Positions 785 to 51,005 of a stretch of 64,000 nt of DNA are shown here, piece after piece. The first letter of the stretch is position 1; every line of letters begins with the position of its first letter. The notes below the pieces were generated by a model, which worked only from the letters and a program-made list of their open reading frames with translations, did not search any database and was not told the origin of the DNA. The stretch is taken from contig JAWXBR010000017.1 of assembly GCA_034440235.1 (NCBI GenBank), positions 12,566 to 76,565 on the forward strand. The letters run 5' to 3'. This stretch comes from a bacterium (GTDB lineage: Bacteria > Bacteroidota > Ignavibacteria > Kapaibacteriales > Kapaibacteriaceae). The position numbers and the translations under genes were made by a program.

Positions 785-823
785 GCAATGGACTCAGAAA
801 TTTCTAGGGTGTTCATGTTGGAA

Positions 824-2217: not shown

Positions 2218-2277
2218 AGGATTGAGAATTAGCCTTGCCTATGTTCGCTCATCGACCTCACAATTCGCGGAAATGCT

Positions 2278-5262
2278 ATGCGGAAACACCTCTATCGTCA
2301 CGCTCTCCAAACAGCCCTGCTGTTGTTTATTGCGGTTCAGTCGCAAGCAACCGACCTAACACCAACAGCTCTAGTATCACCTCGTCAGACACCAGTCAAA
2401 AAGGTCTCAGTGCCAGTTCAGTTCGTCGTTGCAAATCAGAATATTCAGGTAGCTGACGACTATACAATTGATGTTACCATTCGAAACGCTTCGAATCAGT
2501 TGCTGTTGTCGGAGGTTGTAACTGGCAAACGCATTCTTCCGCTTACGAATGTTATGCATACCGCAATCAACACATGGACGCCGTCAGATACAGGTAGATA
2601 TACAATCCGCGTTGCTATCGCATTTGCCCAGGACATCGACACAACTAATAATGTAAAAATTTTTACTGTCAGAGTTGTGCCGGCATCGTACACCCTTTCT
2701 ATGTTCGATGAACAGACGAACGATGCTGATACTGTGAATGCGCAAGATTGTCGCGTGGAGTATATATCGAATGCATCTTCGGTTTGGCAATTTCTAAATC
2801 TGGGTTATGTAACCGGCTCAACAATTCAATGGGTTTTGCAGAATATGCCCCTGCCTCCAAGAGATTTTTTCTACGTGTATCATACCCTTATTAACCTGCC
2901 AATTGTTGGTTTGCATCCACCACAAATTGTCATCGTCCCCTACCTCACCACCCAGCCCCTTGATTCCTTTCCCATCGACTTATCCGATACTGTTCGAATC
3001 GATTATGGAAAGGTTCGTGTGAACATCGGCGACAAAGGCCTGCAGGACACATCTAAGATAACGGTCATCGATTTTGTACCGCCTCCAACAGTGCCAACAA
3101 CTGCACCCATTACCGAAGCGGCAATCCGAAGTTGCGATGTGCCGAACATCGACCTCGACTCGGCGACCTACAATGCGACAACGGTGCCCGGGTACGCGGG
3201 CGACATGAATGCATGTGCACCAACAGCGTGCGCCAACAGTATGCAGTGGCTCGAAAAACATTTTCCTATCAACACGGGGCTTTCGCACCGTCAGAAACTG
3301 GTCGAACTAAGCAAACTCATGGGTCGAGAAAACAATACCGGTGTGTGGTCAGAAGATTTTATTCGTGCTAAGCTCGATTACATCAACAAATACAACCTGC
3401 CGATAAAAGTAAAATTTCAGTTAAGGGGCTTGACGAATGACATCGCAACATCTCCCGAGAGCGATTACGAAAGCAGTGCATCGAATCAAATTGAAGGCGC
3501 ATACCCCAAGTGGGAATGGCTGAAGAAAGAAATGCACGACAGCGAAGACGTCGAGATGTTTGTTGAGTATCACGATCGAAGTGGCGATACGTCGATCGTA
3601 TCCGGACGTCATGTCATCACCGCCAGTGGCGTAGCAGAGGCAGCCGGACAACATCGGTTCTGGTATAAGGACGATGCCGATCAGGCAAAAGCAGGCGGCA
3701 CTCGCGAGGTCGCGAACGAATGGAGATTGCGTGGTGGTACAATTCCTATCATCGACCATGTCGATTGGTCGCCAACGACATCGAGAACAACGGTTGTGTA
3801 CGGCGTGATTTCTGAGTCGTACGATTCGACTGTAAGGCGCAAAGAAAAAGGCTTCTTTGAAAAACTTCGCGATCGCACCGTTGGATGGGCACCCAGATAT
3901 GAACACGACGAAGCAGTCGATTGGGTGAAATCGCATCCGATACGGTTCGGCAACATGTACACACGCCTGCGCGATGGTGTGTATCAGCCTAACGAATGGC
4001 GGTGGGTGCTGCGCAATCATCCCATTGGTGGAGTATTTGACGGTGGCACATCGACAATCCTCAGCCATTATACCCTTGGCATCGACACAACACGATTCCC
4101 CGACCCGATAGAAGTTCGCATTCTCTATACAGACGAGCCAGTAAAAGAACAACCTCCGAATATTGGTCCTGGTATCCTCTATCCTGTTCCACCGACAATC
4201 GGCAACTACGCACAAGGTTCGCCGAACCTCACAACCATCGAGCCACCTCCAACAACGCACAAATTTCTCGAGTATCCACCGGTAGATGGGTTGCCCTTCA
4301 AGGTCGATACTGCCATTATTCACAAAGACGTACCTGGTGCCGATGTCTCTGCAAATGACACAGCCATGGTGGGCGAGTCGTTCATACTTCATGCGGCGGC
4401 TGCAATGTCATGGCTAGGCGCTCATGCTCCAGAAGTAAATCTTAACCGTAGCAACTCGACGTTGCGTAAAGAGATTGCTGAACGTCTTCAGTTTCTTGCG
4501 CCAAATTCTCAGTCGCCACAGATCGAAGCCCTTTTGCGAGAAACACAGAGTGGCTATATGCAAATGAGACCATCGTTTCAGAGCTTCAGACTTCCAGATG
4601 AGGATATCGTAATTTCTTCAATCCCAGAAGGTCCGGTCTACCACGCTAAGAACGTTAGCGTCGACCGCAAAATCGAATGGACATGGCTTCGTGATCGGTT
4701 AAAACGATTTGGTCCGATGCCCGTAGAAATCGGTTACTACAACGCCGACAAACGCACGCACGGAACGTGGGCATTAATCATCGGCGTGGTTGAACACAAC
4801 GGCCTCAAGCGCCTGATTATGAATGTCGACATGGAAGAAGATGCTCCAGGCGGACAGGAAAAACTTGTGCATACCGTACAGACATATAACGGCTACCACT
4901 ACCTTGTCGAGCAATCGTCAAACGTCAGCAGGGCCTACATCGAAACGGTCCTCTCTCTTGAGTACGATCCTTCGATGGTCGATGTGAAGGCCCAGCCCCT
5001 TACCGAAGTGTACAACCTTCGTGTTGTACCACAACCATCGGATGACGTTGTCTCGGTCTCGTGGCAACAAGCCTACACAGCGGGTGCAACAATTAGTGTT
5101 ATCGACTTGCTAGGTGTCGAGCGCTTGCGTGCAGATGTTCCGAATGACGGCTCTGCCACGTGGACAACATCGACGTCGATGTTATCGAACGGACGTTACA
5201 CCATCGTGATTTCCACAACGCTGGGAAGAACATCAATACCACTCATTGTAATTCATGAGTAA
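2278..5262 (+). CDS. secreted T9SS-substrate protein: CARDB/Ig-like domain plus two papain/C39-like modules
   Basis: Signal peptide; DIDTTNN Ig motif; NACAPTACANSMQW and GRHVITASG candidate Cys/His pair; C-terminal VVPQPS...IDLLG...LSNGRYTIVI T9SS-like domain. Confidence 0.7.
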   Translation: MRKHLYRHALQTALLLFIAVQSQATDLTPTALVSPRQTPVKKVSVPVQFVVANQNIQVADDYTIDVTIRNASNQLLLSEVVTGKRILPLTNVMHTAINTWTPSDTGRYTIRVAIAFAQDIDTTNNVKIFTVRVVPASYTLSMFDEQTNDADTVNAQDCRVEYISNASSVWQFLNLGYVTGSTIQWVLQNMPLPPRDFFYVYHTLINLPIVGLHPPQIVIVPYLTTQPLDSFPIDLSDTVRIDYGKVRVNIGDKGLQDTSKITVIDFVPPPTVPTTAPITEAAIRSCDVPNIDLDSATYNATTVPGYAGDMNACAPTACANSMQWLEKHFPINTGLSHRQKLVELSKLMGRENNTGVWSEDFIRAKLDYINKYNLPIKVKFQLRGLTNDIATSPESDYESSASNQIEGAYPKWEWLKKEMHDSEDVEMFVEYHDRSGDTSIVSGRHVITASGVAEAAGQHRFWYKDDADQAKAGGTREVANEWRLRGGTIPIIDHVDWSPTTSRTTVVYGVISESYDSTVRRKEKGFFEKLRDRTVGWAPRYEHDEAVDWVKSHPIRFGNMYTRLRDGVYQPNEWRWVLRNHPIGGVFDGGTSTILSHYTLGIDTTRFPDPIEVRILYTDEPVKEQPPNIGPGILYPVPPTIGNYAQGSPNLTTIEPPPTTHKFLEYPPVDGLPFKVDTAIIHKDVPGADVSANDTAMVGESFILHAAAAMSWLGAHAPEVNLNRSNSTLRKEIAERLQFLAPNSQSPQIEALLRETQSGYMQMRPSFQSFRLPDEDIVISSIPEGPVYHAKNVSVDRKIEWTWLRDRLKRFGPMPVEIGYYNADKRTHGTWALIIGVVEHNGLKRLIMNVDMEEDAPGGQEKLVHTVQTYNGYHYLVEQSSNVSRAYIETVLSLEYDPSMVDVKAQPLTEVYNLRVVPQPSDDVVSVSWQQAYTAGATISVIDLLGVERLRADVPNDGSATWTTSTSMLSNGRYTIVISTTLGRTSIPLIVIHE

Positions 5263-5325
5263 ACTAATGTTGCAATTGACGATCAATCGTTAGGTTCGCG
5301 TACCATTCTAATAAACTAGGACCAC

Positions 5326-5934
5326 ATGAAACCACTTGCAACTATAGTTGCGTTGCTTTTAGTAACTTATGTTAGCGTCTATGCGCAACAGAAAACCATA
5401 GAGACTACGACAACGGTAGATTCTTCTGCAGCAGGCAAAACAACATCAACGCAGACCAGTACGAAGGTTATTCAGGAAGTAGACGTGCCGCGTAACAACA
5501 TGATTACGATTAACCCGTTAAAGTTTTTCATCTTTTACAACTTATCGTTCTATCATGCCTTGTCTGATGTTGTCGTTATTGGCGGTGGTGCACAAGTACC
5601 AACGCTTAGCGCCATAGGTGGCTTTGGCCTAAATGCTGAAGCTCGATTTCATCCGTCTGCACGACGAATGCGAGGTTTCTACGTTGCGCCTAACATATCC
5701 TTCAACACGCTCAATAGTTCGAGTTCTTCGCAAGACGAAACCGCCACTGCTTTCTCTATTGGTGTGCTACTTGGATGGCAGTGGTTTCCTGGAGATGACT
5801 TCGCAATGGGGCTTGGCCTCGGCGTGGACAAGTACTTCCTTTCCGCATCCAATTCTAGTGGTACTGTAGACATCTTCAACGCATTCAATGGCGTAACTCC
5901 GGCATTCCGTTTCGACATCGGTTATGCCTGGTAA
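5326..5934 (+). CDS. outer-membrane beta-barrel protein (DUF3575-like)
   Basis: Signal peptide, alternating beta strands, ends FDIGYAW. Confidence 0.7.
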   Translation: MKPLATIVALLLVTYVSVYAQQKTIETTTTVDSSAAGKTTSTQTSTKVIQEVDVPRNNMITINPLKFFIFYNLSFYHALSDVVVIGGGAQVPTLSAIGGFGLNAEARFHPSARRMRGFYVAPNISFNTLNSSSSSQDETATAFSIGVLLGWQWFPGDDFAMGLGLGVDKYFLSASNSSGTVDIFNAFNGVTPAFRFDIGYAW

Positions 5935-5962
5935 GTCGTCGAGTATTAGAGCTTGGCCAGAC

Positions 5963-8416
5963 TTAGTATAATAGTTTGTATTTGGCCGGATTTGCCTCAT
6001 GCATCATAACATGCGCTGCATCGAACACATGTTCGGCTTCTGGTTTTGACCAGTAGTTGCCGTCGGTGCCATACGCAGGTCTGTGCTCTGCAGCAGTAAG
6101 AGTACGCGGCGCAGAATCGAGATGGCGATAGCCGTTTTGTTCTTCGAGGATATGACGCAACATGAACGACGAAGTACCCCCTGGGATATCTTCGTCGAAC
6201 ACCATAAGGCGATTCGTTTTCTTGAGCGATTCAACGATAACGTGGTGTTTGTCGAACGGCAAGAGCGTTTGTACATCAACGATTTCTAGATCAATTCCTA
6301 CTGCTTCTAACATTGCAGCTGCATCGAGCGCAACGCGAACACATGCACCATACGTAACGAGTGTAATGTCGTTACCGCTGCGCACAATTTCGGGGACACC
6401 AAGTTCAACGGTGTATTCGCCAATGTTCGACGGTAGTTTTTCTTTTAAGCGATAACCATTCAACACTTCGACAACAAGGCCAGGGTCGTCGCCCTTCAAG
6501 AGCGTCGCATACATGCCTGCTGCTTGCGTGAAGTTTCGTGGCACACATACATGCACACCACGCACAAGATTGATGATGCCAGCCATGGGTGAACCGCTAT
6601 GCCAGATGCCTTCGAGACGATGGCCGCGCGTGCGCACAATCACGGGAGCTTTCTGTCCGCCCTTCGTTCTCCAATGCACCGTAGCAAGGTCATCGCTCAT
6701 GAGCTGCAAGGCGTAAAGGACGTAGTCGAGGTACTGTATTTCGGCAATCGGACGTAGACCGCGCATGGCCATGCCAATCGCTTGTCCGAGTATCGTGCAC
6801 TCGCGAATGCCAACGTCCATCACACGCAGCTCGCCAAACTCCGCCTGACATCCTGCCATGCCCTGATTTACGTCGCCGAGTTTGCCCATGTCTTCGCCAA
6901 ATGCGACGATGCGTTTGTCGTTGCGCATTGCATGCTTAAAGAACGCATTAATAACTTCCGAACCGTTTACCGATGTCGAATCGGCACCGTATTGTGCATC
7001 CGACCCAGCAACGTTCAACGCTGAGCGTCCATCGTCCTCGCAAAACAGATGTGATGCATACAACGGCTTTATGCTCTTGTTATAGGACGTGAACCACGCG
7101 GCAAGGGGCTCAGAGCTCACGGGGCTTTGCACCTGTGCACATATACGAAGTGCTGCATGCACAGCAACCATGATGTCTCGACGGAACGGTTCGCGTATCG
7201 CTGCCAGTTCTTTTGAGCTTGCAGCTATGTTCGATGCAATGTCTGCATGTCCTGTTGTTTGCAGTGTGGCAACAAGTGCATCCAGTTGTTCGATTGCTTG
7301 CGCAATCTCGGCACGTATTGGTGCAGTGTAGGCTTCGAATGACTTTCGTTGAGCGAGACGAGCGGACTCGACTGCTTCACGATCGATCGTATCGAGTTCT
7401 TCTGCCGACGCATATCCTTTTTCGAGAATCAGTGCACGGAATCGCGCGATGCAGTCATACTCTTTCTCCCAGTCCATGCGCTCTGCCGATTTATAGCGCT
7501 CATGCGAGCCGGATGTAGAGTGACCTTGTGGTTGCGTGACCTCAATTACGTGTATGATCTGCGGAACATGTTCTGTGCGTGCTGTTTCGGTTGCCTTCGC
7601 ATATGTAGCAACTAGGTTGGGGTAATCCCACCCTTTCACGACGTGTACATCGTATCCCGAGTTACTATCTGGTGTCCGCTGGAAGCCCCTTAATAGTTCA
7701 CCGATGTTCGACTTTGTGACTTGAAGTTCGTTCGGGACAGAAATGCCGTAGCCGTCATCCCAGATCGAGATAACTGCAGGAGCTTTTAGCACACCTATGG
7801 CATTTACAGATTCCCAAAACATACCTTCGGCGCACGAGGCGTTGCCAATCGTGCCAAACGCAACTTCGTTACCCTTGCGAGTGAACATTGTCATGTCATG
7901 CAGGGCTTCGTTTCCTCTGTACAGACGAGAGGCGTATGCCAGGCCAACCAGACGCGGCATTTGCGACCCCGTCGGTGAGACATCTGCCGAGACGTTACGT
8001 GTTTTCGTCTGGTCGAGCCATTTGCCGTTTTCATCGATAAACCGCGTCGCAAAGTGGCCGTTCATCGACCGACCCGCCGAAGCCGGTTCGGCTTGGACGT
8101 CGGTGTGCGCATAGAGTTGGGCAAAGAATTTCTCGACGCTACTCTCGCCAATGGCAAACATGAATGTCTGGTCGCGGTAGTACCCGCTGCGCCAGTCACC
8201 GGGTTGAAATGCTCGCGCCATGGCCAGTTGTGCCAGTTCCTTGCCGTCGCCGAAGATGCCGAACTTGGCTTTTCCGGAAAGCACCTCACGGCGTCCCAAC
8301 AGCGATGCCTGCCTGCTTTCTACCGCAAGACGGTAGTCTTCGAGGTAGGTCGCTGCGGCATTGGCCAAAGCCTTCGACTTCTTCTTTTCTACAGGAGGTG
8401 CGGTTGTTGACTTCAT
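5963..8416 (-). CDS. fused E1 alpha/beta 2-oxoacid (branched-chain-type) dehydrogenase
   Basis: GKAKFGIFGDGKE, GHSTSGSHERYK, FGED, EIQYLDY, GIWHSGSP: Bacteroidota-type fused E1. Confidence 0.92.
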   Translation of the reverse strand: MKSTTAPPVEKKKSKALANAAATYLEDYRLAVESRQASLLGRREVLSGKAKFGIFGDGKELAQLAMARAFQPGDWRSGYYRDQTFMFAIGESSVEKFFAQLYAHTDVQAEPASAGRSMNGHFATRFIDENGKWLDQTKTRNVSADVSPTGSQMPRLVGLAYASRLYRGNEALHDMTMFTRKGNEVAFGTIGNASCAEGMFWESVNAIGVLKAPAVISIWDDGYGISVPNELQVTKSNIGELLRGFQRTPDSNSGYDVHVVKGWDYPNLVATYAKATETARTEHVPQIIHVIEVTQPQGHSTSGSHERYKSAERMDWEKEYDCIARFRALILEKGYASAEELDTIDREAVESARLAQRKSFEAYTAPIRAEIAQAIEQLDALVATLQTTGHADIASNIAASSKELAAIREPFRRDIMVAVHAALRICAQVQSPVSSEPLAAWFTSYNKSIKPLYASHLFCEDDGRSALNVAGSDAQYGADSTSVNGSEVINAFFKHAMRNDKRIVAFGEDMGKLGDVNQGMAGCQAEFGELRVMDVGIRECTILGQAIGMAMRGLRPIAEIQYLDYVLYALQLMSDDLATVHWRTKGGQKAPVIVRTRGHRLEGIWHSGSPMAGIINLVRGVHVCVPRNFTQAAGMYATLLKGDDPGLVVEVLNGYRLKEKLPSNIGEYTVELGVPEIVRSGNDITLVTYGACVRVALDAAAMLEAVGIDLEIVDVQTLLPFDKHHVIVESLKKTNRLMVFDEDIPGGTSSFMLRHILEEQNGYRHLDSAPRTLTAAEHRPAYGTDGNYWSKPEAEHVFDAAHVMMHEANPAKYKLLY

Positions 8417-8437
8417 AGAACCGCGAAAATACGAAGG

Positions 8438-9031
8438 CTAGCTGTCGAACATGCCTTGTTGGATCGGAGACCCTTCTGAGGCGTCGGCTATAAGGGCCTC
8501 GGCGCGAGTCAGAGTGTCAAGTAAGATGTCGTTAACGATGACTTCGGCAAACTCGCCTCTGTGGCCCATTTCCATTTCGGCGCGGGCCATGCGCAAGGAA
8601 ATCTGATCGTCGGTTTCGGTCTTGCGTTCGCGAAGTCTATTTTCCAAAATCTCCAGTGACGGAGGTGCAATAAAGATGAGGAGCGTGTCTTCGGGGAATG
8701 CATGCAAGAGCGAAAGAGCCCCTTTCACGTCGACGTCGAAGACGACGTGAGCCCCTCTATCGAGGGCCGATTGCACCTGCGAACGCAACGTACCGTAATA
8801 ATGACCGAAGATCTCTTCGTATTCGATAAGGTCGCCACGTTCGATTGATGCACGAAATGCTTCGCGCGTAAGGAAATGATAGTCACGACCGTCAACTTCG
8901 TTCGGACGTTGTCCGCGCGTCGTTGCACTCACGCTGAACTCAAGCGCTGGAAAGCGCGTGAGTAAATGACGTGCTACGGTAGTCTTACCCGAGCCGCTGG
9001 GTGCACTAAGAACAATAAGCTGTTTTTTCAT
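8438..9031 (-). CDS. gmk: guanylate kinase
   Basis: SAPSGSGKTT, SVSATTR, DGRDYHF, YYGT. Confidence 0.97.
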   Translation of the reverse strand: MKKQLIVLSAPSGSGKTTVARHLLTRFPALEFSVSATTRGQRPNEVDGRDYHFLTREAFRASIERGDLIEYEEIFGHYYGTLRSQVQSALDRGAHVVFDVDVKGALSLLHAFPEDTLLIFIAPPSLEILENRLRERKTETDDQISLRMARAEMEMGHRGEFAEVIVNDILLDTLTRAEALIADASEGSPIQQGMFDS

Positions 9032-9076
9032 GCCACGTGTTGCACTTGAATGGACATAAGCACTTGAATGTACATG

Positions 9077-9952
9077 TTATTCTACGTTCTGTACTTGTTC
9101 ACGCATGCGTTCGAGCTCTTCCTTCATTCCGACGACAAGGCGGGCTATTTCTGGGTCGTTTGCCTTCGATCCGATGGTGTTTACCTCCCTATTCATTTCC
9201 TGCAGTAGAAAATTCAGCTTACGTCCGACTGCTGTCTCGTCCTGCATGTACTCGCGAAAGAACTTCATGTGACTTCGCAGCCGTACGCACTCTTCCGATA
9301 CGTCAAGTTTTTCTGAAAGCAGAACAATCTCGAGTTGCAGACGATGTTCGTCGACCACGGCATCATCGACAAGCTGGCGCACGCGTTCGCGCAACCGGTT
9401 GCGTTCGAATGGAATACGTTCGGCCGAGCGGACCTCGATGTCAGCCAGGGCAGTGTCTATTGCAAGGATGCGGTTGTCGAAATCTGCGGTAAGCTCAGAG
9501 CCTTCTTTCTCACGCATCTCATTGAGGGAGCGAAGCGCTTCGACGATTGCTGCTTTTAGGTCGGGCCAAGCGTCCGGACGTTCTGCATCTTCTTCTGGTC
9601 GTGCCATGACGGCATCGAACTTCATAAGCGTTTCGATCGTTACGTCGCCTTCGAGGTGTAGCTTGTCTCGCAATACTCGCAGCGACTTTGTGATACGCTC
9701 AGCAGCTTCTGCATTAAACGTCACCTCTTCATTGGCTGCTGCTGCTTCTAAACGAACGTACACAGAAATCGTGCCTCGCGAAACATGCTCGCGCACGGTT
9801 TCACGAACGTTGAGTTCTTTATTCGCAAAGTTTTTCGGAAGTCGTGTTGTGAGTTCCAGATACCGAGCATTTACGCATCGTATCTCTACAGAGCAGGGCA
9901 AACCCTGCAACATCGATTCGCTCTTGCCATACCCCGTCATGCTTCTAATCAT
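9077..9952 (-). CDS. yicC: YicC/YloC family endoribonuclease
   Basis: MIRSMTGYG start, GRKLNFLLQEMNREVNTIGSK, REQVQNVE end; next to gmk. Confidence 0.95.
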   Translation of the reverse strand: MIRSMTGYGKSESMLQGLPCSVEIRCVNARYLELTTRLPKNFANKELNVRETVREHVSRGTISVYVRLEAAAANEEVTFNAEAAERITKSLRVLRDKLHLEGDVTIETLMKFDAVMARPEEDAERPDAWPDLKAAIVEALRSLNEMREKEGSELTADFDNRILAIDTALADIEVRSAERIPFERNRLRERVRQLVDDAVVDEHRLQLEIVLLSEKLDVSEECVRLRSHMKFFREYMQDETAVGRKLNFLLQEMNREVNTIGSKANDPEIARLVVGMKEELERMREQVQNVE

Positions 9953-42799: not shown

Positions 42800-45067
42800 A
42801 TGCTGCACCAGAATCTCTGGTTCCGAATATCGTTTGCGGCGGCAATTGCTGTGATAACGATGGTTGCATTTGTAGCGGCCGTAGGTGTTGGTGCTGCTAC
42901 CGCAACAGCGCAGAGCGTTCAGGTAAGCAACTGGCGCACATACTCGTCGATGCGTGCCGTTGCTGCGGCCGATGTCGACAGCAAGGGACGCATTTGGGCC
43001 GCCACTTCGGGTGGAGTGTTCGTGTACGACCAGGCCAACGATACCGTTATCGAGTTTCGGAATATTGGTGCGTTGTTGTCCTTAGATGTCACCTCGGTCC
43101 TTTGTGATCGAAGCAATACACGCGTGTTTGTTGGTTGCAGTGACGGCGGATTACATGTAGTTACCGAAGACCTAGTCTGGACGGCAATTACAGACATTAG
43201 ACGTGCAACGCAATACCCACGACGAGCCATTAACGACTTTGCCCTCGATGGGTCGACACTGTACATGGCCACTGGGTTCGGCGTTGTTTCGTACGATGTC
43301 GACAGGAATGTTTTTATCGAGACTGTAGACCGCATTGCTACGATGGGTGCGAAGACATCGGTACACGGCATTACAATGTTTCAGGACTCAATCTGGCTAG
43401 CAACCGATTCTGGTGTTGCCGTTGCTGCGAAAAACGTTCCGACGTTGCGACTGCCTTCGGTTTGGACGTCGCTTTCGACCGCAGCAGGACTGCCACGTGC
43501 GAGTGTGACGGGAGTACGAGCAAACGCAACGAACATCTTTGTGTCTGTCGGCAACGGAGTATTTAAGGCCGACGGTCACACATTTTCGCTGTTGTACGGC
43601 TCGTCCGATCCAATTCTTTCTCTGGCATCGATCAATGGCGAGCTCACGTTCTCCGACAAGAAAGAAGTTCGTACGCTCGACGCAGCATTGCCTGTTACAT
43701 GGCCGGGTCCGCTCGTCGGCCACACAGCTCTAATGCTAAACAATGTTATGTCTCACGTCGCCTTTGTGCAGGATAAATCGATTGCCATTTGGCAGAACAA
43801 TGTATTAACACCAGTCGAAGTCAACTCCCCCATCTCGAATCAGTTCGCAAATCTTGCAATGGATACAGATGGTGGATTATGGGTAGCTACTGATGTCGAT
43901 CCGCCGCGCACCGGCGTTGGTGTTGCGTACTTCAATGGTTCGGTATGGCGAAACTTTACGTCGCAAACGGACGACGCCATAAAGACCAATGCCTGTTATC
44001 GTGTATCGGCCCTAGCCGACGGAACAGTATGGATAGGCACGTGGGGTTCGGGCGCAGTTCGCGCTGTGCGCAACAATGGTGCAGTAGAACTAACGCGTTT
44101 TACAAGCAGCAACTCAAGCCTTGTAGGAATTGCTGTCGACAACAACTACGTACTTGTTGGTGATGTTGCTCTTGATAGAAACGGCAATACGTGCCTTGTA
44201 AACGAGCAGTCGGGCACAAAACTCATGGCGACGATTCGCACAGATGGCAGTGGAACATCATTTGAGAATTGTAGCGATCCGAGAAACAACTTCTACCGAT
44301 CGATTGCAGTAGACGGTGCCGGGAATAAATGGATAGGCAGCCCCTTCGCCAATGGTATTGTCGTTGTGAACGACGACCTCTGCAACATCGTTCGCTCAAG
44401 CAACACGCAGCTTCCGGATAACACCGTAAACGCAGTACGTGTAGATCGGTTGGGCGCAATGTGGATTGGCACCATAAAAGGTGTTGCGGTAATCTCGGGT
44501 CCGTCGGCAATTACCAACACCTCGATTCCATTTCTACGACGCATAACAGCACTAACAACCGTTGTCGTAAACGACATTGCCGTTGATGCACTCAATTACA
44601 AATGGATTGCAACAACGGGTGGTGTGTTTGTGCTGAACGAAGACGGTACCGAAGTACTTGCAACCATCACCGCAGCAAACTCTCCGCTCCTCGATGATAA
44701 TGTCCGTTCGGTTGTCGTGGATGATAAAACTGGCACTGCGTTCTTTGGTACAAGTGTCGGACTCTCTACCGCGCGGACACAAAGTATACGTCCGGTAGAA
44801 ACCTACGCCCTCTCCTTCTCGCCCCAACCATACCGTCCGTCGCAATCTGGTGCTCTCACCATCGACGGCCTTGCAGCCGACTCTGACGTACGCATCATGA
44901 CAATCGACGGCGCTCTTGTCGCAGCTCTTCAAAGCCGAGGCAGGCAAGCCTTATGGGACGGCACAGACGTTCAAGGCCGTTTCGTTACACCAGGCGTGTA
45001 CGTCGTACATGTCGTTAGCGCTTCGTCGAAAGAGTCAGCAGCGGGCAAGATCGTCGTTACGCGATAG
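42800..45067 (+). CDS. porZ: PorZ-like T9SS accessory protein (beta-propellers plus Ig-like C-terminal domain)
   Basis: NWRTYSS start, repeated VD..NYKWIAT blades, NSPLLDDNV, WDG...GVY..GKIVV end. Confidence 0.82.
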   Translation: MLHQNLWFRISFAAAIAVITMVAFVAAVGVGAATATAQSVQVSNWRTYSSMRAVAAADVDSKGRIWAATSGGVFVYDQANDTVIEFRNIGALLSLDVTSVLCDRSNTRVFVGCSDGGLHVVTEDLVWTAITDIRRATQYPRRAINDFALDGSTLYMATGFGVVSYDVDRNVFIETVDRIATMGAKTSVHGITMFQDSIWLATDSGVAVAAKNVPTLRLPSVWTSLSTAAGLPRASVTGVRANATNIFVSVGNGVFKADGHTFSLLYGSSDPILSLASINGELTFSDKKEVRTLDAALPVTWPGPLVGHTALMLNNVMSHVAFVQDKSIAIWQNNVLTPVEVNSPISNQFANLAMDTDGGLWVATDVDPPRTGVGVAYFNGSVWRNFTSQTDDAIKTNACYRVSALADGTVWIGTWGSGAVRAVRNNGAVELTRFTSSNSSLVGIAVDNNYVLVGDVALDRNGNTCLVNEQSGTKLMATIRTDGSGTSFENCSDPRNNFYRSIAVDGAGNKWIGSPFANGIVVVNDDLCNIVRSSNTQLPDNTVNAVRVDRLGAMWIGTIKGVAVISGPSAITNTSIPFLRRITALTTVVVNDIAVDALNYKWIATTGGVFVLNEDGTEVLATITAANSPLLDDNVRSVVVDDKTGTAFFGTSVGLSTARTQSIRPVETYALSFSPQPYRPSQSGALTIDGLAADSDVRIMTIDGALVAALQSRGRQALWDGTDVQGRFVTPGVYVVHVVSASSKESAAGKIVVTR

Positions 45068-45139
45068 CCGTTCCGGCATACTAACACAGCTCGTACATTT
45101 TCCGCGACCTTCTTTTTTGTCCGCCGTTTCCGATCTCCG

Positions 45140-45147
45140 TATCTTTG
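45140..45147 (+). promoter_or_regulatory. -7 promoter element of the tRNA
   Basis: TATCTTTG 7 nt before the tRNA 5' end. Confidence 0.6.
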
Positions 45148-45154
45148 TTGCTCT

Positions 45155-45237
45155 GCGGAGGTGGCGAAATGGCAGACGCACTACCTTGAGGTGGTAGCGC
45201 CCGAAAGGGTGTAGGGGTTCAAGTCCCCTTCTCCGCA
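45155..45237 (+). tRNA. tRNA-Leu (anticodon GAG), CCA not encoded
   Basis: GCGGAGG acceptor stem, TGGCAGAC D loop, CTACC-TTGAGGT-GGTAG anticodon arm, long variable arm, GTTCAAG T loop. Confidence 0.96.
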
Positions 45238-45249
45238 CACAGTAGTTTT
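45217..45249 (+). repeat. att core, left copy
   Basis: gttcaagtccccttctccgcacacagtagtttt, identical to 50899-50931. Confidence 0.95.
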
Positions 45250-45287
45250 CTAAGATTTGCAGGTCTTACGCTAAACTCTAAACAAAC

Positions 45288-45322
45288 AAGGCGCTTACGG
45301 GTTTTCTCTCGTAGGCGCTTTT
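45288..45322 (+). terminator. element-supplied hairpin terminator after the tRNA
   Basis: aaggcgcttacggg-ttttc-tctcgtaggcgctttt. Confidence 0.55.
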
Positions 45323-45343
45323 GCTTTATTGCATAACATTTTA

Positions 45344-45396
45344 TGCCCTTACTACCCGTTTTGCCCTTACTTTGTTGCCCTTACTTGCCCTTACTT
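45344..45396 (+). repeat. integrase arm-type sites (4 x TGCCCTTACT)
   Basis: Four direct copies upstream of the integrase; two more at the right end. Confidence 0.75.
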
Positions 45397-45448
45397 GTAC
45401 CATTAACGGATATTGGGGTCAGTTCAGAGTAACTACGAGGGTGCTTTT

Positions 45449-46807
45449 ATGGGAATAGCGATACGGTATAGTGCCAGTTTTGAACTAGCGAATCCAAAGG
45501 GAAACAACCGCGGTTCTATTCGTGCAATCATCACACACGCAAAGCAGCGGTTACGCTTCCCGATTGGCCATGATAGGATCGAAGTAGACAAATGGGATAG
45601 CAAGGCGCAACGCGTAAAGGGCCACACTCGCAAGGCAAAGGACGCCAACGAGCGTATCGAGGAGATTCGCAGCACGGTAGATATGTGGTTCGAGCAAGAC
45701 ACACCCGGCCAACTGTCCGAACTTCAGTTTACACTTACGGGCAAGTACCCGAAGAGCGCAACACTCGATTCGAGCGGAACACCCGTTGCACCGGGCAAAG
45801 GCATAGAGGCATTATTCAGCGCGTACATATCAGACAAAACGAAACCGGGTAAAAAAGTTATCAGCATTGCGACGGTTAAGGGATTCGAGACAGTACAGAA
45901 AGCGTTAGTGCAATTCGAGCAAGGTACACGTACCACCCTCTCCCCTGCCAGTTTCGCAATGAATACGCGTCAACAAGCACACGACGCAAAAGAACTAGAG
46001 CAGTCCATATCGGAGTGGCTCGCAACGCAACACGTCCGACAGGACAAGAACAAGGGAGCGAAGGGGCTGAACGACAATACACGTTATCGTGCCATGCGGA
46101 GACTTTCAACCGTGCTAAAATGGTCAGAGGAACAGGGCATTGCCGGGGCAAACAAATTGCACACTCGATTTGCGTATGGCAAGGTTGAAGCATACGGACA
46201 AGTTGCGCTAACCGATGCAGACATAACCGCAATCGAGGCACTAGAACTTGAACCGCAAACCCAAATGTGGCACACTCGCAATATGTTCTTGCTAGGTTGT
46301 CGAACCGGCCTTCGCGTCTCCGATTGGCACAAGGTAGACCCTAAGCGATGGAAAGAGGAACACCAAACCATACCCACAACCAAAACAGGCGGAACGGCAA
46401 CCGTTGTGCATACCGACGAAGTGGTTGCAATTCTACGACTGTACGAAACGACGGGACTACCGACGTTCCTACGACCGAACAACAATGGGAATATCAATCA
46501 CAACGCAAAGCTAAACTTGTGGATTAAATCGTTGTGCGCAATGGCAGGACTTACGCGTCCTACCGATAAAATCACCAAACAGAACGAACGCAAGCAAGTA
46601 ACGACAGTACCCTTTTACACCTTGGTTTCGACACACACCGCACGTCGGACGTTTGTCACGCTCGCACGTCTTAGCGGCCTTTCGGACGTGCTTATTGCGA
46701 TGCAATCGGGGCACGAAGACCTAGCGACACTAAAAACGTATACAAAGGCAACAGCGGATGATCTGGCGGCAATGGTAAAGGGCAACACAAAAAGGAATAC
46801 GAAATGA
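45449..46807 (+). CDS. int: tyrosine recombinase/integrase
   Basis: Arm-binding N-terminus (KWDSKAQRVK..N), TGLRVSD, KT, HTARRTF, SGH, Y catalytic residues. Confidence 0.95.
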   Translation: MGIAIRYSASFELANPKGNNRGSIRAIITHAKQRLRFPIGHDRIEVDKWDSKAQRVKGHTRKAKDANERIEEIRSTVDMWFEQDTPGQLSELQFTLTGKYPKSATLDSSGTPVAPGKGIEALFSAYISDKTKPGKKVISIATVKGFETVQKALVQFEQGTRTTLSPASFAMNTRQQAHDAKELEQSISEWLATQHVRQDKNKGAKGLNDNTRYRAMRRLSTVLKWSEEQGIAGANKLHTRFAYGKVEAYGQVALTDADITAIEALELEPQTQMWHTRNMFLLGCRTGLRVSDWHKVDPKRWKEEHQTIPTTKTGGTATVVHTDEVVAILRLYETTGLPTFLRPNNNGNINHNAKLNLWIKSLCAMAGLTRPTDKITKQNERKQVTTVPFYTLVSTHTARRTFVTLARLSGLSDVLIAMQSGHEDLATLKTYTKATADDLAAMVKGNTKRNTK

Positions 46808-47718
46808 GTTTAGCATACACCGACCCGGCTGGATTTGAGGCAATGGTTCTGCTTTTGCCCATGGAGAACCGTGCGTTACGCATTGCAAGGGACGTATCGG
46901 ACCTATGCTTCGAGTTGGCGGAAGCTAAACAGCAGCCCGGCTTGCACGATCCCAGTTTGATAAACTTCGCATACGACCATCCCGAAGGTGTGGCTCCGAA
47001 TCGGTTGTATATGCAGTTCGCTTTGCTTCGAGCATACTGTGATGAAGATGGCGCGTCGCTTACCGGGTTTGATCGTATGAAGGTACGACACACGATTCGG
47101 CACTACGTACGAATGTTCAATGCCTGCCAATACGCGATAACCTTGAATATCGAGCAATGGGCCGCGGTGGGCTTCCCCGACGATTGGACGCCTCCAGATC
47201 AAACAATCACACTTGCTTCCATAGGTCCACATCATCAAGGTGAAAAACCGCTCGTGATAGGCAGCGAGACACAACAGGCGATTTCAGATGAGATGGACGT
47301 TTCAATTGGAACCGTCAACCTGATCGTGAACGCTCCCAATTTCAATCTTCAGCATTCACCAACCCCTAGCCCCTTTGAAAAGTTGAAAATTGAAAGTGAT
47401 GCGATGGACGAAGCAACACCCGGCGCATATGCAAATCCACAGTTGAAAGTGTCGCTAGCAGCGTTGTGTGTTTGGTGGAAGCAGCGGGACCACGTTTACA
47501 TGAATTCGGGAGGATTTGACGGATTGTACTCTTGGGTCGTCGAACAACAGATACTTAACTCCCAAGGCACCACCATTACGAAGGCCTCACTCAACACAAA
47601 GTGGAACGGAAGCAGCGACGTTGGTACTACACCTGAGGGAAAGCGTCGAATTGCACCTTGGTCCGACCACTTTGCCAATCTAGACAGGCGTTGGCCACCT
47701 TCTAACGAAACGACCTGA
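46804..47718 (+). CDS. hypothetical protein containing a 53-aa segment shared with the helicase C-terminus
   Basis: 304-aa ORF, ATGA-coupled to the integrase. Confidence 0.7.
   Translation: MSLAYTDPAGFEAMVLLLPMENRALRIARDVSDLCFELAEAKQQPGLHDPSLINFAYDHPEGVAPNRLYMQFALLRAYCDEDGASLTGFDRMKVRHTIRHYVRMFNACQYAITLNIEQWAAVGFPDDWTPPDQTITLASIGPHHQGEKPLVIGSETQQAISDEMDVSIGTVNLIVNAPNFNLQHSPTPSPFEKLKIESDAMDEATPGAYANPQLKVSLAALCVWWKQRDHVYMNSGGFDGLYSWVVEQQILNSQGTTITKASLNTKWNGSSDVGTTPEGKRRIAPWSDHFANLDRRWPPSNETT
47269..47427 (+). repeat. 159-bp direct repeat, copy 1
   Basis: Matches 49279-49437 with 4 mismatches by eye. Confidence 0.93.
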
Positions 47719-47801
47719 AAAATTCCAACGCGTTGTCAACGCGTTAACCTTACCACATCCTTGCATTCTTGCCTTTGAGTTTCATAACAAAAGGAAAGAT
47801 C

Positions 47802-48092
47802 ATGCAACAGACAGTGGTCATCGCGACCGAAGAAATTCTCGACTCGATAAAGCAAACGATCCAACAAGAGTTTGCGCTCGCTAGAAACCATAGGCCTAAC
47901 GCCCTCACTTCTAGCACTTCGGTAGCCAAGGCTCTGACCTTCGCAGACGTTGCCCGACGGCTTCGCATATCAGCCCCGACCTTACGGGCCATGCTCAAAC
48001 GAGGAGACATAGAGGCCTTTCGCGTTGGCTCGAATTGGCGTATCACAGAAGATGCTCTAACCACGTACCAAAGTGGCAAGGGGGCAGCATGA
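47802..48092 (+). CDS. excisionase-family HTH DNA-binding protein
   Basis: LTFADVARRLRISAPTLRAMLKRGDIEAFRVGSNWRI; AAGGAAAG upstream. Confidence 0.88.
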   Translation: MQQTVVIATEEILDSIKQTIQQEFALARNHRPNALTSSTSVAKALTFADVARRLRISAPTLRAMLKRGDIEAFRVGSNWRITEDALTTYQSGKGAA

Positions 48093-48307
48093 CAACCGAA
48101 GAAATGGCCCAATTGTTTGTTGCTTCTGTGTTAGCCGGAGACATTGAGACGGTACTGCGCTTGATAAACGAGCTTATGGCTCGTATACGAGCGCTCGAAG
48201 GGCGAATACGAATGATGGAAAGTCGGGTTGTCACTGCCACCAATGGAGACCGTGACCGAGGCACGAGAGCCGATCTTTTGAAGCGTTATGGGAAGCCACT
48301 CCGATGA
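48089..48307 (+). CDS. small coiled-coil hypothetical protein
   Basis: ATGA overlaps at both ends; heptad LINELMARIRALEGRI. Confidence 0.65.
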   Translation: MTTEEMAQLFVASVLAGDIETVLRLINELMARIRALEGRIRMMESRVVTATNGDRDRGTRADLLKRYGKPLR

Positions 48308-49557
48308 GTGAGCCGACACCGAACTATGTCGAACAATTCGACGCGTTCCCACAAAGCGCAAAGGATGCGATTGTCAACCGCGCACTCGATATGGGCATTG
48401 GTTCTATGGAGCCTGCGCACGGCATCGAAGTGTTACACAACCTTGGTGACGTTCGGCAGCACTGCAAAGCAATATCGTGGGCGTGGCCGCATTGGATCGG
48501 CAATGGCTTACCGACGCTGATTGTTGCTGCACCGGGCATCGGAAAAAGTACGTTGGCGTTATGCCTCGCACACTGTGTGTATGCGGGCACACCGTGGCCG
48601 GATGGTACACCCAACACCACAACACAAGGGCAGACGCTATGGATCGAAACGGAAGCGGGACATAGGATGCACGTAGACCGTGCCGAACGGTTTTGCATTC
48701 CGGACGAAGCCGTCGTGTTCGCAGCCAGGTTCGATGAGACTGTATCCTTTACAGACAAGGAATTTTGCGAACGCGTCATGACCTATGCGTTGCATGATAC
48801 CATACGCATGATTGTCATTGACTCACTTTCGGGCTGGAGCAGCGGAGACGAGAATAGTACAACTGCGGGTGATCCTATGAAGTTTACAGGGTTGCTAAGT
48901 CAGCGTTCGGGAAAGCCAACACTTGTTGTGCATCACTTGTCGAAGGTTGGTTGGTCGTCCGATGTAGACAACCCGCCGACCCTCGCCAATGTACGTGGTG
49001 CAGGCGCAATCGTACAGCACTCTCGCATTGTAGTGGTGATAGATGCACCATTCAAGGACGAACCCGACTTGCTACGGCTGACCGTCATCAAAAACAACTA
49101 CGGAAGTGAACGACCGAGTATTGGTGTTCGACTCCAAAGCAACCGACTAGAAGCGTTCGACCTTCGATCAGCAATTCGCGAAGCTTCACAGTACAACGCA
49201 GACAACCCGAGCCAATCGGCAAAGGCCAAGCGAGCAACCCGAGATGCTCGTATCCGAGAATTGTATCAGCAAGGCGTCACACAACAGGCGATTTCAGATG
49301 AGATGGACGTTTCAATTGGAACCGTCAACCGGATCGTGAACGCTCCCAATTTCAATCTTCAACATTCACCAACCCCTAGCCCCTTGGAAAAGTTGAAAAT
49401 TGAAAGTGATGCGATGGCCGAAGCAACACCCGGCGCAATCGACTTTTACAGCGAACCTCTCCGTATTCCGGGGCTGAATGACACACCCAATCCGTTCGAC
49501 GTCGTAGACACGTTCGATACGCAGCGCAGACAGTACAGCAATCAAGGGGTGAACTAA
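48304..49557 (+). CDS. AAA_25/RepA-like helicase with C-terminal HTH
   Basis: Walker A AAPGIGKST, Walker B MIVIDS, VVHHLSK, RGAGAI, KNNYG; HTH RDARIRELYQQGVTQQAISDEMDVSIGTVNRIV. Confidence 0.85.
   Translation: MSEPTPNYVEQFDAFPQSAKDAIVNRALDMGIGSMEPAHGIEVLHNLGDVRQHCKAISWAWPHWIGNGLPTLIVAAPGIGKSTLALCLAHCVYAGTPWPDGTPNTTTQGQTLWIETEAGHRMHVDRAERFCIPDEAVVFAARFDETVSFTDKEFCERVMTYALHDTIRMIVIDSLSGWSSGDENSTTAGDPMKFTGLLSQRSGKPTLVVHHLSKVGWSSDVDNPPTLANVRGAGAIVQHSRIVVVIDAPFKDEPDLLRLTVIKNNYGSERPSIGVRLQSNRLEAFDLRSAIREASQYNADNPSQSAKAKRATRDARIRELYQQGVTQQAISDEMDVSIGTVNRIVNAPNFNLQHSPTPSPLEKLKIESDAMAEATPGAIDFYSEPLRIPGLNDTPNPFDVVDTFDTQRRQYSNQGVN
49279..49437 (+). repeat. 159-bp direct repeat, copy 2
   Basis: Matches 47269-47427. 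Confidence 0.93.
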
Positions 49558-50036
49558 TGCCCAGACCCCTTACAACCGTGAACGAACGGCTCGTTGAAAC
49601 GCTCGCAAAACATCACCTTACGACCAAGGAAATTGCCTACGTCATCGGCTGTTCGGTTACGACGTTGAACCATCGTTTCCGTTCAACTATTGACCGTGGA
49701 AGGGCTTTGGCGGTCGTAAACCTACGAGAGATGCAATGGAAATCAGCGATGCGGGGCAACGTCCGTATGCTCATACACTTAGGAAAGCATACGTTAGGGC
49801 AGACAGAACAGGGCTTGCGGACTCGCACCGACTACGCTAGTACCATTGGCGACTCGGAGGGCATCGTGCTGGATCGGAGGCGACAACGAACCGACAAACC
49901 GGACAACGAAGCGGACGAAATGACAGTTGCACCCCTACCGACAGAACCGGAAGCACCGCACAAAACCCCGCAAATACTGCCTTTTGTTACATGGGAAACA
50001 GAGGAATACGAGCCAATGGTTGCCAATTTTAAGTAA
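49557..50036 (+). CDS. HTH protein resembling a phage terminase small subunit
   Basis: TTKEIAYVIGCSVTTL HTH followed by LREMQWKSAMRGNVRMLIHLGKHTLGQ; TAATG-coupled to the helicase. Confidence 0.6.
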   Translation: MPRPLTTVNERLVETLAKHHLTTKEIAYVIGCSVTTLNHRFRSTIDRGRALAVVNLREMQWKSAMRGNVRMLIHLGKHTLGQTEQGLRTRTDYASTIGDSEGIVLDRRRQRTDKPDNEADEMTVAPLPTEPEAPHKTPQILPFVTWETEEYEPMVANFK

Positions 50037-50070
50037 GTGGTTATATTCTATACACTTACGTTTTTTGCAC

Positions 50071-50098
50071 CTGTTAAATAACGTATGTTATGTAAACT
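50071..50098 (+). other. dif-like XerC/D recombination site
   Basis: CTGTTAAATAA-CGTATG-TTATGTAAACT, 11-6-11 layout. Confidence 0.7.
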
Positions 50099-50204
50099 AG
50101 AAACGAGATTCATTGCTTAATGGCGGGTTGCTCACAATTAGGTCAAGTCCTGAACAAGCCCGCCAAAAAAAGTATCGAGTTTTTCATATCATTCTAACTT
50201 GCAT

Positions 50205-50394
50205 TGTGCTAGTCCCCGTTTGTTCGTAGCGGGACTCGTGATTGTCAGTTGATAGAAAAGTTTGTGAGTTGTGCAGTCGATGATAGAACTTGAGGCAACG
50301 ATATGTTGTTCTTCCGTAAGTACTCAGCAGGCGATACGTAGCCGACCCCGCTGTGAATGCGTTTGTGATTGTAGAACTGCACCCATCGTGTGAA
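50205..50394 (-). pseudogene. IS3-family transposase 3' remnant with probable terminal repeat
   Basis: 50394-50245 translates FTRWVQFYNHKRIHSGVGYVSPAEYL...*, followed by ...GGGGACTAGCACA end. Confidence 0.75.
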
Positions 50395-50396
50395 AA

Positions 50397-50693
50397 TTAT
50401 GCTGTTCCAAGAATAATATTCCGTGCCGTCTCAAGATTAGCCTCTTTTGCCCTAGCGTTAGCACGGACAATTTCGATAACCCACCAGATCATTAATCCGC
50501 CGCCAGTCACGATATAGAGTAACCACATACCGATCTTACCGAAATAGAGGAATGGGAGACCAAAGATTGCCAAAACAAGCGCAACGGTTCCGCTCTTTTT
50601 CTTGCTAGACCATTGCTGGTATACCATACCTTGTTTTTCAGGCGTCAACTTGTTGAAGTGTGGCATTACTTCCATTGGTAAATCTGTATACAT
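50397..50693 (-). CDS. TM2/NINE-domain membrane protein
   Basis: KKKSGTVALVLAIFG..FLYFGK.G..LLYIVTGGGLMIWWVIE. Confidence 0.82.
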   Translation of the reverse strand: MYTDLPMEVMPHFNKLTPEKQGMVYQQWSSKKKSGTVALVLAIFGLPFLYFGKIGMWLLYIVTGGGLMIWWVIEIVRANARAKEANLETARNIILGTA

Positions 50694-50836
50694 ATACTCA
50701 CCCTCGTTGTGGTTGGAAGACTGCATTCTGCAAGTCTCGAAAATCCTAACGAGAGCAAACTAGCAATTTGAAGCGCGTTTTGAAATAGCCAGTAGTTGGT
50801 ATTTCCTCCGCTGTCAGAGTGCAACCATCTGAGTAG

Positions 50837-50862
50837 TTGCCCTTACTTTGTTGCCCTTACTT
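50837..50862 (+). repeat. integrase arm-type sites, right end
   Basis: ttgcccttactttgttgcccttactt, identical to 45361-45386. Confidence 0.75.
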
Positions 50863-50898
50863 CCGACGCAACGTGTAAACAGGCGCTTTCGAGCGGTC

Positions 50899-50931
50899 GT
50901 TCAAGTCCCCTTCTCCGCACACAGTAGTTTT
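50899..50931 (+). repeat. att core, right copy (duplicated tRNA 3' end)
   Basis: Identical to 45217-45249. Confidence 0.95.
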
Positions 50932-50970
50932 TACGGGTTTCTAGGTAATGGGTTAAAGTCTTACGAATCA

Positions 50971-51005
50971 AGGCCTTGCGTCAAATAGGATGCAGGGCCT
51001 TTTTT
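50971..51005 (+). terminator. intrinsic terminator after the right att site
   Basis: AGGCCTTGCGTC-aaatag-GATGCAGGGCCT-TTTTT. Confidence 0.65.

Follow-up and report, generated by a model that had tools for sequence, protein, structure and literature searches.

A stretch of helicase gene copied into the neighbouring chimeric ORF2 of a rare integrative element from a microbial-mat bacterium

Mosaic genes arising from illegitimate recombination are a general principle in phages and other mobile elements. In phage lambda the origin of replication lies inside the O gene, where it consists of four 19-bp iterons with an AT-rich flank, and in satellite phage P4 the alpha primase-helicase acts at two separated site clusters, ori and crr. 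Both P4 sites are named, without further description, in the available part of PMC9942202. The Rep helicases of Staphylococcus aureus pathogenicity islands (SaPIs), as set out in the available part of PMC9371898, recognise penta- or hexanucleotide iterons through their C-terminal domain; six to twelve of these iterons lie right after rep, around an AT-rich centre, with at least two per side and in opposite orientations. Here we describe a 5.7-kb element at a tRNA-Leu site of an uncultured microbial-mat bacterium of the Kapaibacteriaceae (GenBank assembly GCA_034440235.1, contig JAWXBR010000017.1, positions 12,566 to 76,565; this whole stretch of 64,000 nucleotides is called the window, and its numbering is used throughout), in which 164 bp of a helicase gene recur in ORF2, the open reading frame (ORF) that follows the integrase gene. 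The gene order is int, ORF2, xis, a small ORF, a RepA/DnaB-like helicase gene and ORF6. Like SaPIs and other phage-inducible chromosomal islands (PICIs), so far as the source describes them, this is an integrase-excisionase element with its own helicase bearing a predicted C-terminal DNA-binding domain. It also recalls the PICMIs (minimalist chromosomal islands that phages can induce) presented in the available part of PMC10803314, which are very small tRNA- or site-specific islands with an integrase, an excisionase-type helix-turn-helix (HTH) protein and a replication gene, although the host here is a microbial-mat bacterium and not a member of the Vibrionaceae, and the likeness is one of layout. 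The parts of the element that carry the repeat are:

46804-47718, + strand: ORF2, whole; no family
46804-47265, + strand: ORF2 part 1, residues 1-154, N-domain of a rare family (proteins P0002, 72-73%, P0008 and P0011)
47264-47427, + strand: repeat copy A in ORF2, residues 155-208; derived copy, with five TTGAAA hexamers
47434-47718, + strand: ORF2 part 3, residues 211-304, the "C2" domain (proteins P0009 and P0010, 48%)
48304-49557, + strand: helicase, 417 residues, AAA_25 with a C-terminal HTH (Pfam AAA_25, 9.5e-21; AlphaFold 2 (AF2); Foldseek)
49274-49437, + strand: repeat copy B in the helicase, residues 325-378; native copy, with four TTGAAA hexamers and one TGGAAA

The two copies form a direct repeat of 164 nt in which 158 of 164 bases are identical (96.3%; counted by script). 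Their starts lie 2010 nt apart (3 x 670), both are read in the same frame, and the 60 nt flanking each side of both copies share only 25% identity, so that the edges of the repeat are sharp. A first-pass annotation, made from the letters of the window, had reported four differences between the 159-nt cores at 47269-47427 and 49279-49437, in two genes it held to be otherwise unrelated, and both statements proved exact: the cores, each of which begins at codon position 1 of its ORF, differ at 47321 T / 49331 G, 47352 G / 49362 A, 47376 T / 49386 G and 47408 A / 49418 C. The full 164-nt unit adds 47267-8 AG / 49277-8 TC, bringing the differences to six. The same annotation was right that both cores are translated in the same frame and wrong that they encode an identical peptide of 53 residues, since 50 of the 53 agree; the core changes are Leu/Arg, Phe/Leu and Asp/Ala, together with one synonymous base change. 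Overall, the six base differences produce four changed residues and one synonymous change, numbers too small to test, in which purifying selection leaves no visible mark. In the complete genome (3,044,209 bases, a 71-contig draft) a search returned these two copies only, with E-values of 2e-81 and 5e-73 that are far beyond chance, and a dispersed repeat or miniature inverted-repeat transposable element (MITE) could be ruled out on that count.

The repeat is real. Six public runs labelled microbial mat metagenome contain part of the stretch, and four of these (X1-X4) were compared as Logan k=31 contigs, not as raw reads, the other two (X5 and X6), with small shares, being left aside; X1 may be the source sample, X3 is another sample from another study, and stretches of X2-X4 without contig cover were not counted as absence. 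The X1 contigs break exactly at the two stretches of at least 31 nt that are identical between the copies (47269-47320 and 47377-47407), the points at which a genuine two-copy repeat has to interrupt a k=31 graph. These shared stretches reach depths of 29 and 29.5, whereas the pieces that flank the copies or belong to one copy alone lie at 10-17.4 (12.2-17.4 for the flanks and the inter-copy interval), and the A-type path, at depth 10, and the B-type path, at 15.9, appear as separate pieces. Two X3 contigs, 47082-47293 and 47264-47555, place copy A within ORF2 without a single difference, and the left junction of copy B is present in contigs of X2 and X4. An assembly chimera, which the first-pass annotation had named as the danger, is thereby excluded as far as contigs can exclude it. 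That the genome is a 71-contig draft and that the repeat was first seen in one assembly would both suit a second copy made by the assembler, but we regard this as extremely improbable: the copies differ at six positions, X1 keeps the two variants apart in contigs of their own and shows roughly twice the depth over what they share, copy A has been re-assembled within ORF2 from X3, and the segment also exists in a version particular to a diverged helicase allele. As an observation apart, the X3 contigs on the ORF2 side are identical to the window, while those on the helicase side (48389-49700) differ from it by 2-9%; either the sample contains two variants of the element side by side, or its element is recombinant.

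In the helicase, the segment belongs to a recognisable structure. The AF2 model shows a RecA-fold core (Foldseek matches to DnaB, 4esv, at 3e-11 and to RepA of RSF1010, 1nlf, at 3e-10), a C-terminal HTH made of helices 306-322, 327-334 and 338-346 with predicted local distance difference test scores (pLDDT) of 77-87, and disorder from 348 to 417; the AAA_25 protein is probably the replication initiator-helicase of the element. Residues 325-378, encoded by the repeat, comprise helices 2 and 3 of the HTH and a 32-residue disordered linker, as the first-pass annotation had proposed, and helix 1 lies outside the repeat. The best HTH match is Pfam HTH_23 at residues 319-347, whose 18.8 bits (E 0.0014) fall short of the gathering score of 24.6, and HTH families of PHROG match at 1e-4 to 3e-3. 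A three-helix HTH is nevertheless indicated by the AF2 bundle and by alignment with a paralogue from the same genome (36% identity over residues 46-344), which has its HTH at the matching place. The two proteins share G324, A329, D335, S337, V341 and R343, the last of which, in the recognition helix, is invariant in 7/7 aligned helicases. No relative of the helicase exceeds 36% identity.

That the segment is native to the helicase is indicated by the matching HTH of the paralogue, by its absence from the ORF2 homologues (below) and by a diverged helicase allele present in X3 and X4. This allele continues across both edges of the repeat and has AG at 49277-8, which is the state of copy A. In X3, a loose end of 30 letters before 49441 is a diverged homologue of the last 30 nt of the repeat and runs on into the equivalent helicase tail; on this ground the idea that the donor, in one step, was an ancestral helicase bearing a C2 tail was rejected. 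Since the diverged allele carries the segment, the segment was in the helicase before the two alleles split, and copies A and B, 96% identical even in the fast-changing linker, are younger than that split.

ORF2, for its part, is by sequence comparison a three-part chimera in which the helicase piece forms the middle patch. When 1.84 billion representative proteins were searched exhaustively with phmmer, seven matches came back, one of them the query itself. ORF2 residues 1-145 match P0002, P0008 and P0011, residues 155-209 match only the helicase of the element itself, and residues 210-274 match P0009 and P0010 (48%). Homology to P0002 extends to Gly153-Ser154, which is the left edge of the repeat, and homology to P0009 and P0010 begins at Asn211, three residues past its right edge. 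The three relatives of the N-domain share a different C-terminal half, common to them, and the two relatives of C2 carry other N-terminal parts. The segment is thus absent from all five ORF2 homologues (3/3 for the N-domain and 2/2 for the C-domain), which was the check that the first-pass annotation had suggested, and this absence gives the direction of transfer, from helicase to ORF2. Neither ORF2 nor its five homologues match any Pfam, PHROG, NCBIfam or PADLOC family; Foldseek against the PDB gave 0 matches for ORF2 at E <= 0.001 among the 421 listed, and the Atlas held nothing usable for the N-domain. For C2, the language-model search of the Atlas gave a lead, and a lead only, to DUF6043-like small Bacteroidota proteins, without a Pfam match. 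Alignment searches confirmed 0/74 candidates for the N-domain among genome contigs and 0/43 for C2 among viral contigs; with ORF2 on viral contigs, 1/102 was confirmed, a 38-residue match in a 316-residue ORF of a phage-like contig, which was taken as spurious.

The HTH copy in ORF2 is incomplete. Helix 1 (helicase 306-322) was not copied, and ORF2 is modelled instead with a strand at 134-142 and with coil ahead of residue 156. At the invariant position of the recognition helix, ORF2 has Leu (47321 T) where the helicase has R343 (49331 G), and where contigs of X2 and X4 lie over the helicase copy, they still read the G of that Arg codon. The AF2 model gives pLDDT 33-47 over ORF2 residues 110-210, against 70-81 in both flanking domains. 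ORF2 therefore shows neither the three helices nor the conserved recognition-helix residue, and the models and alignments make a working HTH in it unlikely because helix 1 is uncopied, the invariant Arg is Leu and confidence over the region is low. Of the domain grafting proposed in the first-pass annotation, the transfer from helicase to ORF2 holds, and the transfer of a complete HTH domain does not.

The explanation that we favour, and to which we give about even credence, is that a piece of the helicase gene was pasted into ORF2 as a recombination patch, that it now serves as a linker and not as a DNA-binding domain, and that the resulting repeat is a route of decay. In this scheme, a non-homologous recombination event would have placed a copy of 164 bp of the helicase gene in the gene that follows int, perhaps by template switching during replication of the element or as filler DNA at a repaired break, mechanisms suggested because the junctions lack flanking homology. 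The patch would have replaced the usual C-terminal half of the family-A protein and joined what was left, the N-domain, in frame to a C2 domain lying downstream and found elsewhere on other proteins, and in ORF2 the copied stretch would be at most a flexible linker. As a by-product, everything from the C2 part of ORF2 to helicase residue 324, with xis and the small ORF included, lies between the copies of a 164-bp direct repeat, and homologous recombination across this repeat would be a liability for the xis-helicase module, a path of decay and not a programmed switch. Such an event is a fairly ordinary recombination scar, of a known kind, namely mosaic gene formation in mobile elements. The sharp junctions with 25% flank identity, the joining of modules from unrelated families at domain boundaries, and a donor within the same element are as in the mosaic genes of phages and other mobile elements. 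The locus differs from these in that donor and copy are both kept 2 kb apart in 5.7 kb, and in that the copy is only 164 bp long and in frame on both sides. It thus offers a clean and well-bounded case of gene building in a mobile element, in which donor and copy stand side by side and the event can be read directly, and it documents a very rare 5.7-kb element, whose ORF2 has six relatives among the 1.84 billion representative proteins.

Several observations weigh against this explanation. Both junctions are in frame, for which we estimate a chance of about 1/9 unless selection kept C2 translated. The AF2 models derive from 7-sequence alignments (mean pLDDT 56.8 and 65.1), which makes the low confidence over ORF2 weak evidence, and six differences are too few for a selection test of the copy. 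No orthologous element by which to date the duplication was found in searches of metagenome, genome and viral contigs. Among metagenome contigs, the helicase alone confirmed 0/80 candidate stretches, and the alignment of helicase and paralogue confirmed 1/219, which we take to be the paralogue locus of this genome, having a comparable query match and ORFs of equal sizes; among genome contigs, the helicase alignment confirmed 2/56, both distant (33% and 28%), and 0/18 candidates were scored among short protein fragments carrying helicase residues 290-417. The remaining points concern the DNA of the segment. Copy A is the sole 70-nt window in the genome (3.04 Mb) with at least four TTGAAA hexamers, and the densest such cluster. 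When, as a control for a motif picked after the fact, any non-trivial hexamer was allowed, clusters this dense occurred at 177 loci genome-wide, 50 of them with both orientations. The run of hexamers is more perfect in copy A, the derived copy, than in copy B (three forward TTGAAA against two), and two relatives of the helicase have strong iteron arrays at or just past the 3' end of the gene, which is the position of the segment here. From the density of the cluster and the iterons of the relatives, it follows that the DNA itself may be a functional site and that the copy may not be neutral.

These observations feed a rival that we consider a tentative one, with appreciably less in its favour than the recombination patch, in which the segment is an origin or helicase-binding array read by the very HTH that it encodes, and the ORF2 copy is a second site; initiation might depend on this second site, 2 kb away, as with ori and crr of phage P4, or might be damped by it through pairing or titration. 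The TTGAAA-type repeats noted in the first-pass annotation are present (Tandem Repeats Finder (TRF): period 8 x 2.8 at 47375-47395, period 7 x 2.5 at 49387-49405), as is their imperfect inverse, with 20-nt arms 22 nt apart whose complementarity is 80% for copy A and 85% for copy B; the arms are these same hexamers, which face each other around a 28-nt centre. They lie at 47300(-), 47340(-), 47375(+), 47383(+) and 47390(+) in copy A and at 49310(-), 49350(-), 49393(+) and 49400(+) in copy B, where one TGGAAA is added, and the two copies hold 9/13 TTGAAA matches within 45000-51000, on a background of 1,818 occurrences in the genome on both strands (0.6 per kb). Two of the 177 dense loci fall in the element, namely the segment and a putative arm-site array, and from these counts we estimate the chance of such a cluster in a given 164-nt stretch at about 1%. 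Because ORF6 starts at the helicase stop, there is no intergenic room, and an origin in the usual place would fall inside coding DNA. Arrays in two relatives are suggestive. On a genome contig labelled Anaerolineae (arrays within 2013-2191), the 9-mer TTGGCCATG is repeated x 7.7 (18-bp x 3.8, perfect), 48 nt past the stop of a helicase ORF (602-654 residues, primase-helicase-like in a scan without the N-terminal part), and its inverse follows x 3.3 about 80 nt beyond the first array, in a textbook layout of opposed iterons. In the paralogue from the genome of the element (repeats at 7279-7353, 7843-7927 and 8948-8991 of its locus), PMQGDT repeats are encoded by an 18-bp x 4.7 array within the 3' end of the gene; a 21-bp x 2.1 array lies in the 5' end and a perfect 17-bp x 4.4 array about 480 bp past the gene, the last of which is, from its sequence, a likely iteron origin. 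Compared with the SaPI pattern, so far as the source gives it, the helicase gene ends with hexanucleotide repeats that point both ways, four of them in copy B (two reverse, two forward), beside five in copy A within ORF2 (two reverse, three forward), and two relatives have clear arrays at this place. The element differs in that its repeats lie inside coding DNA, those of the helicase gene in its 3' part and not downstream, around a centre that is not AT-rich, with the array present twice and no primase gene found in the element, and in that its helicase is a RecA-fold AAA_25 protein with a three-helix HTH, and not an SF3 (superfamily 3) or MCM-like Rep with a winged helix. As in P4, a small integrative element with a helicase that ends in a DNA-binding domain would have two initiator-repeat clusters some kilobases from each other, although both clusters here are one recent 96% duplicate inside two genes. 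As in lambda, initiator-binding repeats would lie in the coding sequence of the initiator, in an interdomain linker, although the repeats here are of 6 nt and have no AT-rich flank. Against a binding site stand the composition, with GC of 0.45-0.50 over both copies (200-nt windows), a C-rich 28-nt centre and the only AT-rich stretch of the element at 50000-50199 (GC 0.36); the shortness of the repeats (6 nt, period 7-8, TRF scores 31-35), which could reflect slippage in a low-complexity linker (EKLKIES); and a motif that was picked after being seen. Single-strand folding is likewise ordinary (DNA z -1.35, RNA z -2.23), and a structured RNA or DNA was rejected for that reason. An internal promoter was also rejected, as neither copy contains a sigma-70-like site (five in the element, 5.7 expected). 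For the duplicated origin of the first-pass annotation, then, the unusual hexamer cluster and the arrays of the relatives speak in favour and the missing AT-rich centre against; if it were true, a helicase-binding origin placed twice, inside the DNA that codes for its own DNA-binding domain, would be an unusual origin architecture. A further rival takes the protein copy at face value, with ORF2 using the copied recognition helix on the DNA sites of the helicase as a competitor or regulator of replication, much as truncated transposase or Rep derivatives share the DNA-binding domain of the full enzyme. The copy is open and in frame at both junctions and keeps 50/53 residues, including helix 2 and most of helix 3, but the missing helix 1, preceded in ORF2 by coil, the loss of the invariant Arg, the low pLDDT, and the fact that 32/53 residues are disordered linker in the helicase too, leave it improbable.

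Two rivals treat the repeat as a substrate for recombination. A crossover between the copies is predicted to delete 2010 bp, which run from the C2 part of ORF2 through xis and the small ORF to residue 324 of the helicase, and to leave an open in-frame fusion of 247 codons, the loss of 2010 bp and the in-frame fusion being as the first-pass annotation had calculated, and at the reciprocal circle or tandem junction the helicase frame would close onto C2 to give 474 codons, also open. An active module, in which frequent crossover yields a locked element without xis and helicase together with a 2010-bp circle or tandem duplication, would draw on these two open frames and on the X1 depths, which fall into one group of 16.9 (left flank), 17.4 (right flank) and 15.9 (B-type path) and another of 12.2 (inter-copy interval) and 10 (A-type path). 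This split fits deletion with a crossover in the 52-nt identical stretch and would correspond to about 29% deleted copies, a hint only; a second hint is one X2 contig of 326 nt and depth 4.06 that joins 49386 to 47377, the reciprocal junction. However, contig depths give neither copy number nor cell share, and the grouping in X1 draws on five values of a single run. The joint in X2 falls on the one shared 31-mer, in a run without contigs over 47157-47376 and 49387-49450, and resembles a low-coverage graph artefact. No deletion joint was seen in X1-X4, where k=31 contigs cannot show one, as the recombinant has no k-mers of its own. The longest identical stretch, 52 nt, is a poor substrate, and a deletion is irreversible and hence not a switch. 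We therefore think an active module of this kind doubtful at best, while noting that our estimate for it is not exclusive of the other readings, and the switch to a locked form suggested in the first-pass annotation is not borne out, the only signs being the hints from depth and a single shallow contig that has the reciprocal junction. Less likely still in our estimation would be a combination of the two themes, in which the segment is an origin and its duplication lets the xis-helicase module loop out as a 2010-bp circle, a minimal replicon with the helicase closed onto C2 (474 codons), and the chromosome keeps a locked remnant with the 247-codon fusion; its traces would be the lower inter-copy depth in X1 and the circle-type junction contig in X2. 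On balance, we retain the recombination patch with a linker role as the explanation to be preferred.

The remaining features place the repeat in a compact integrative element:

45155-45238, + strand: tRNA-Leu (anticodon GAG), integration target (ARAGORN)
45217-45249: attL core, 33 nt identical to 50899-50931, overlapping the tRNA 3' end (repeat comparison)
45339-45397: GCCCTTAC(T) repeat array beside attL (repeat search; TRF)
45413-46807, + strand: tyrosine integrase, 464 residues (Pfam Phage_integrase, 2.9e-7; phrog_1, 4e-21)
47802-48092, + strand: excisionase-type HTH protein, xis (Pfam HTH_17, 1.6e-11; TIGR01764, 3.4e-10, above cut-off)
48089-48307, + strand: small ORF, 72 residues, no family match (Pfam, PHROG, NCBIfam, PADLOC)
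49557-50036, + strand: ORF6, 159 residues; start overlaps the helicase stop (phrog_12540, 3e-6; phrog_309, 3.8e-5)
50245-50382, - strand: C-terminus remnant of an insertion sequence (IS) transposase (family judged by eye from the translation)
50397-50726, - strand: TM2-domain membrane protein, cargo (Pfam TM2, 6.8e-7)
50899-50931: attR core, 33 nt (repeat comparison)

An integrase beside a tRNA gene, a 33-nt direct repeat on the far side and an excisionase together mark this as a tRNA-integrating tyrosine-recombinase element. The 33-nt att stretch begins with the last 22 nt of tRNA-Leu and recurs exactly at 50899-50931, and the Logan contig that covers int to ORF2 likewise starts at about 45220. 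The GCCCTTAC(T) repeats lie just inside both att sites (45339-45397 and 50836-50862, with a 26-nt stretch identical at 50837-50862) and are probably arm-type integrase sites; the N-terminus of the integrase has a weak Arm-DNA-bind_5 match (4.4e-4, under cut-off). The start of ORF2 overlaps the integrase stop (ATGA, 46804-46807) and that of ORF6 the helicase stop (TAATG), and these overlaps, with those of xis and the small ORF and of the small ORF and the helicase, suggest two tightly coupled transcription units. ORF6 bears a weak resemblance in its PHROG matches to HTH or small-terminase-like phage proteins, and the small-terminase-like match (phrog_309, 3.8e-5) is the only sign of a phage satellite, and a weak one.

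The element is very rare in the databases searched. Some part of it is matched by 51/61 genomes (its own included), in nearly all of them only the tRNA, and a 41-nt exact pattern from the repeat had 0 matches in the viral contig collection. In the one genome of the same genus that was searched, a contig (67164-68470) carries a tRNA-Leu region that is 71-72% identical and the start of a related integrase (71% identity), where the contig ends; this genome gave no match to ORF2 or the helicase, and the integrase start at the equivalent tRNA suggests that tRNA-Leu is a recurrent landing site. The DNA of the IS remnant (50205-50393) recurs at 92% and 85% identity on two other contigs of the genome itself. 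Four related genomes, all from its family and one from its genus, have it at 77-84%.

A second island in the same genome, on the contig that carries the paralogous helicase (800-9700), had no tRNA in the 18 kb scanned with ARAGORN. It encodes an MmeI-type type IIG restriction-methylase (947 residues) and a SPARTA-like pair made up of a TIR-APAZ protein (462 residues) and a short prokaryotic Argonaute (pAgo; 521 residues, PADLOC pAgo_I, E 7e-195), and these genes are adjoined by an excisionase-type HTH gene and the paralogous AAA_25-HTH helicase.

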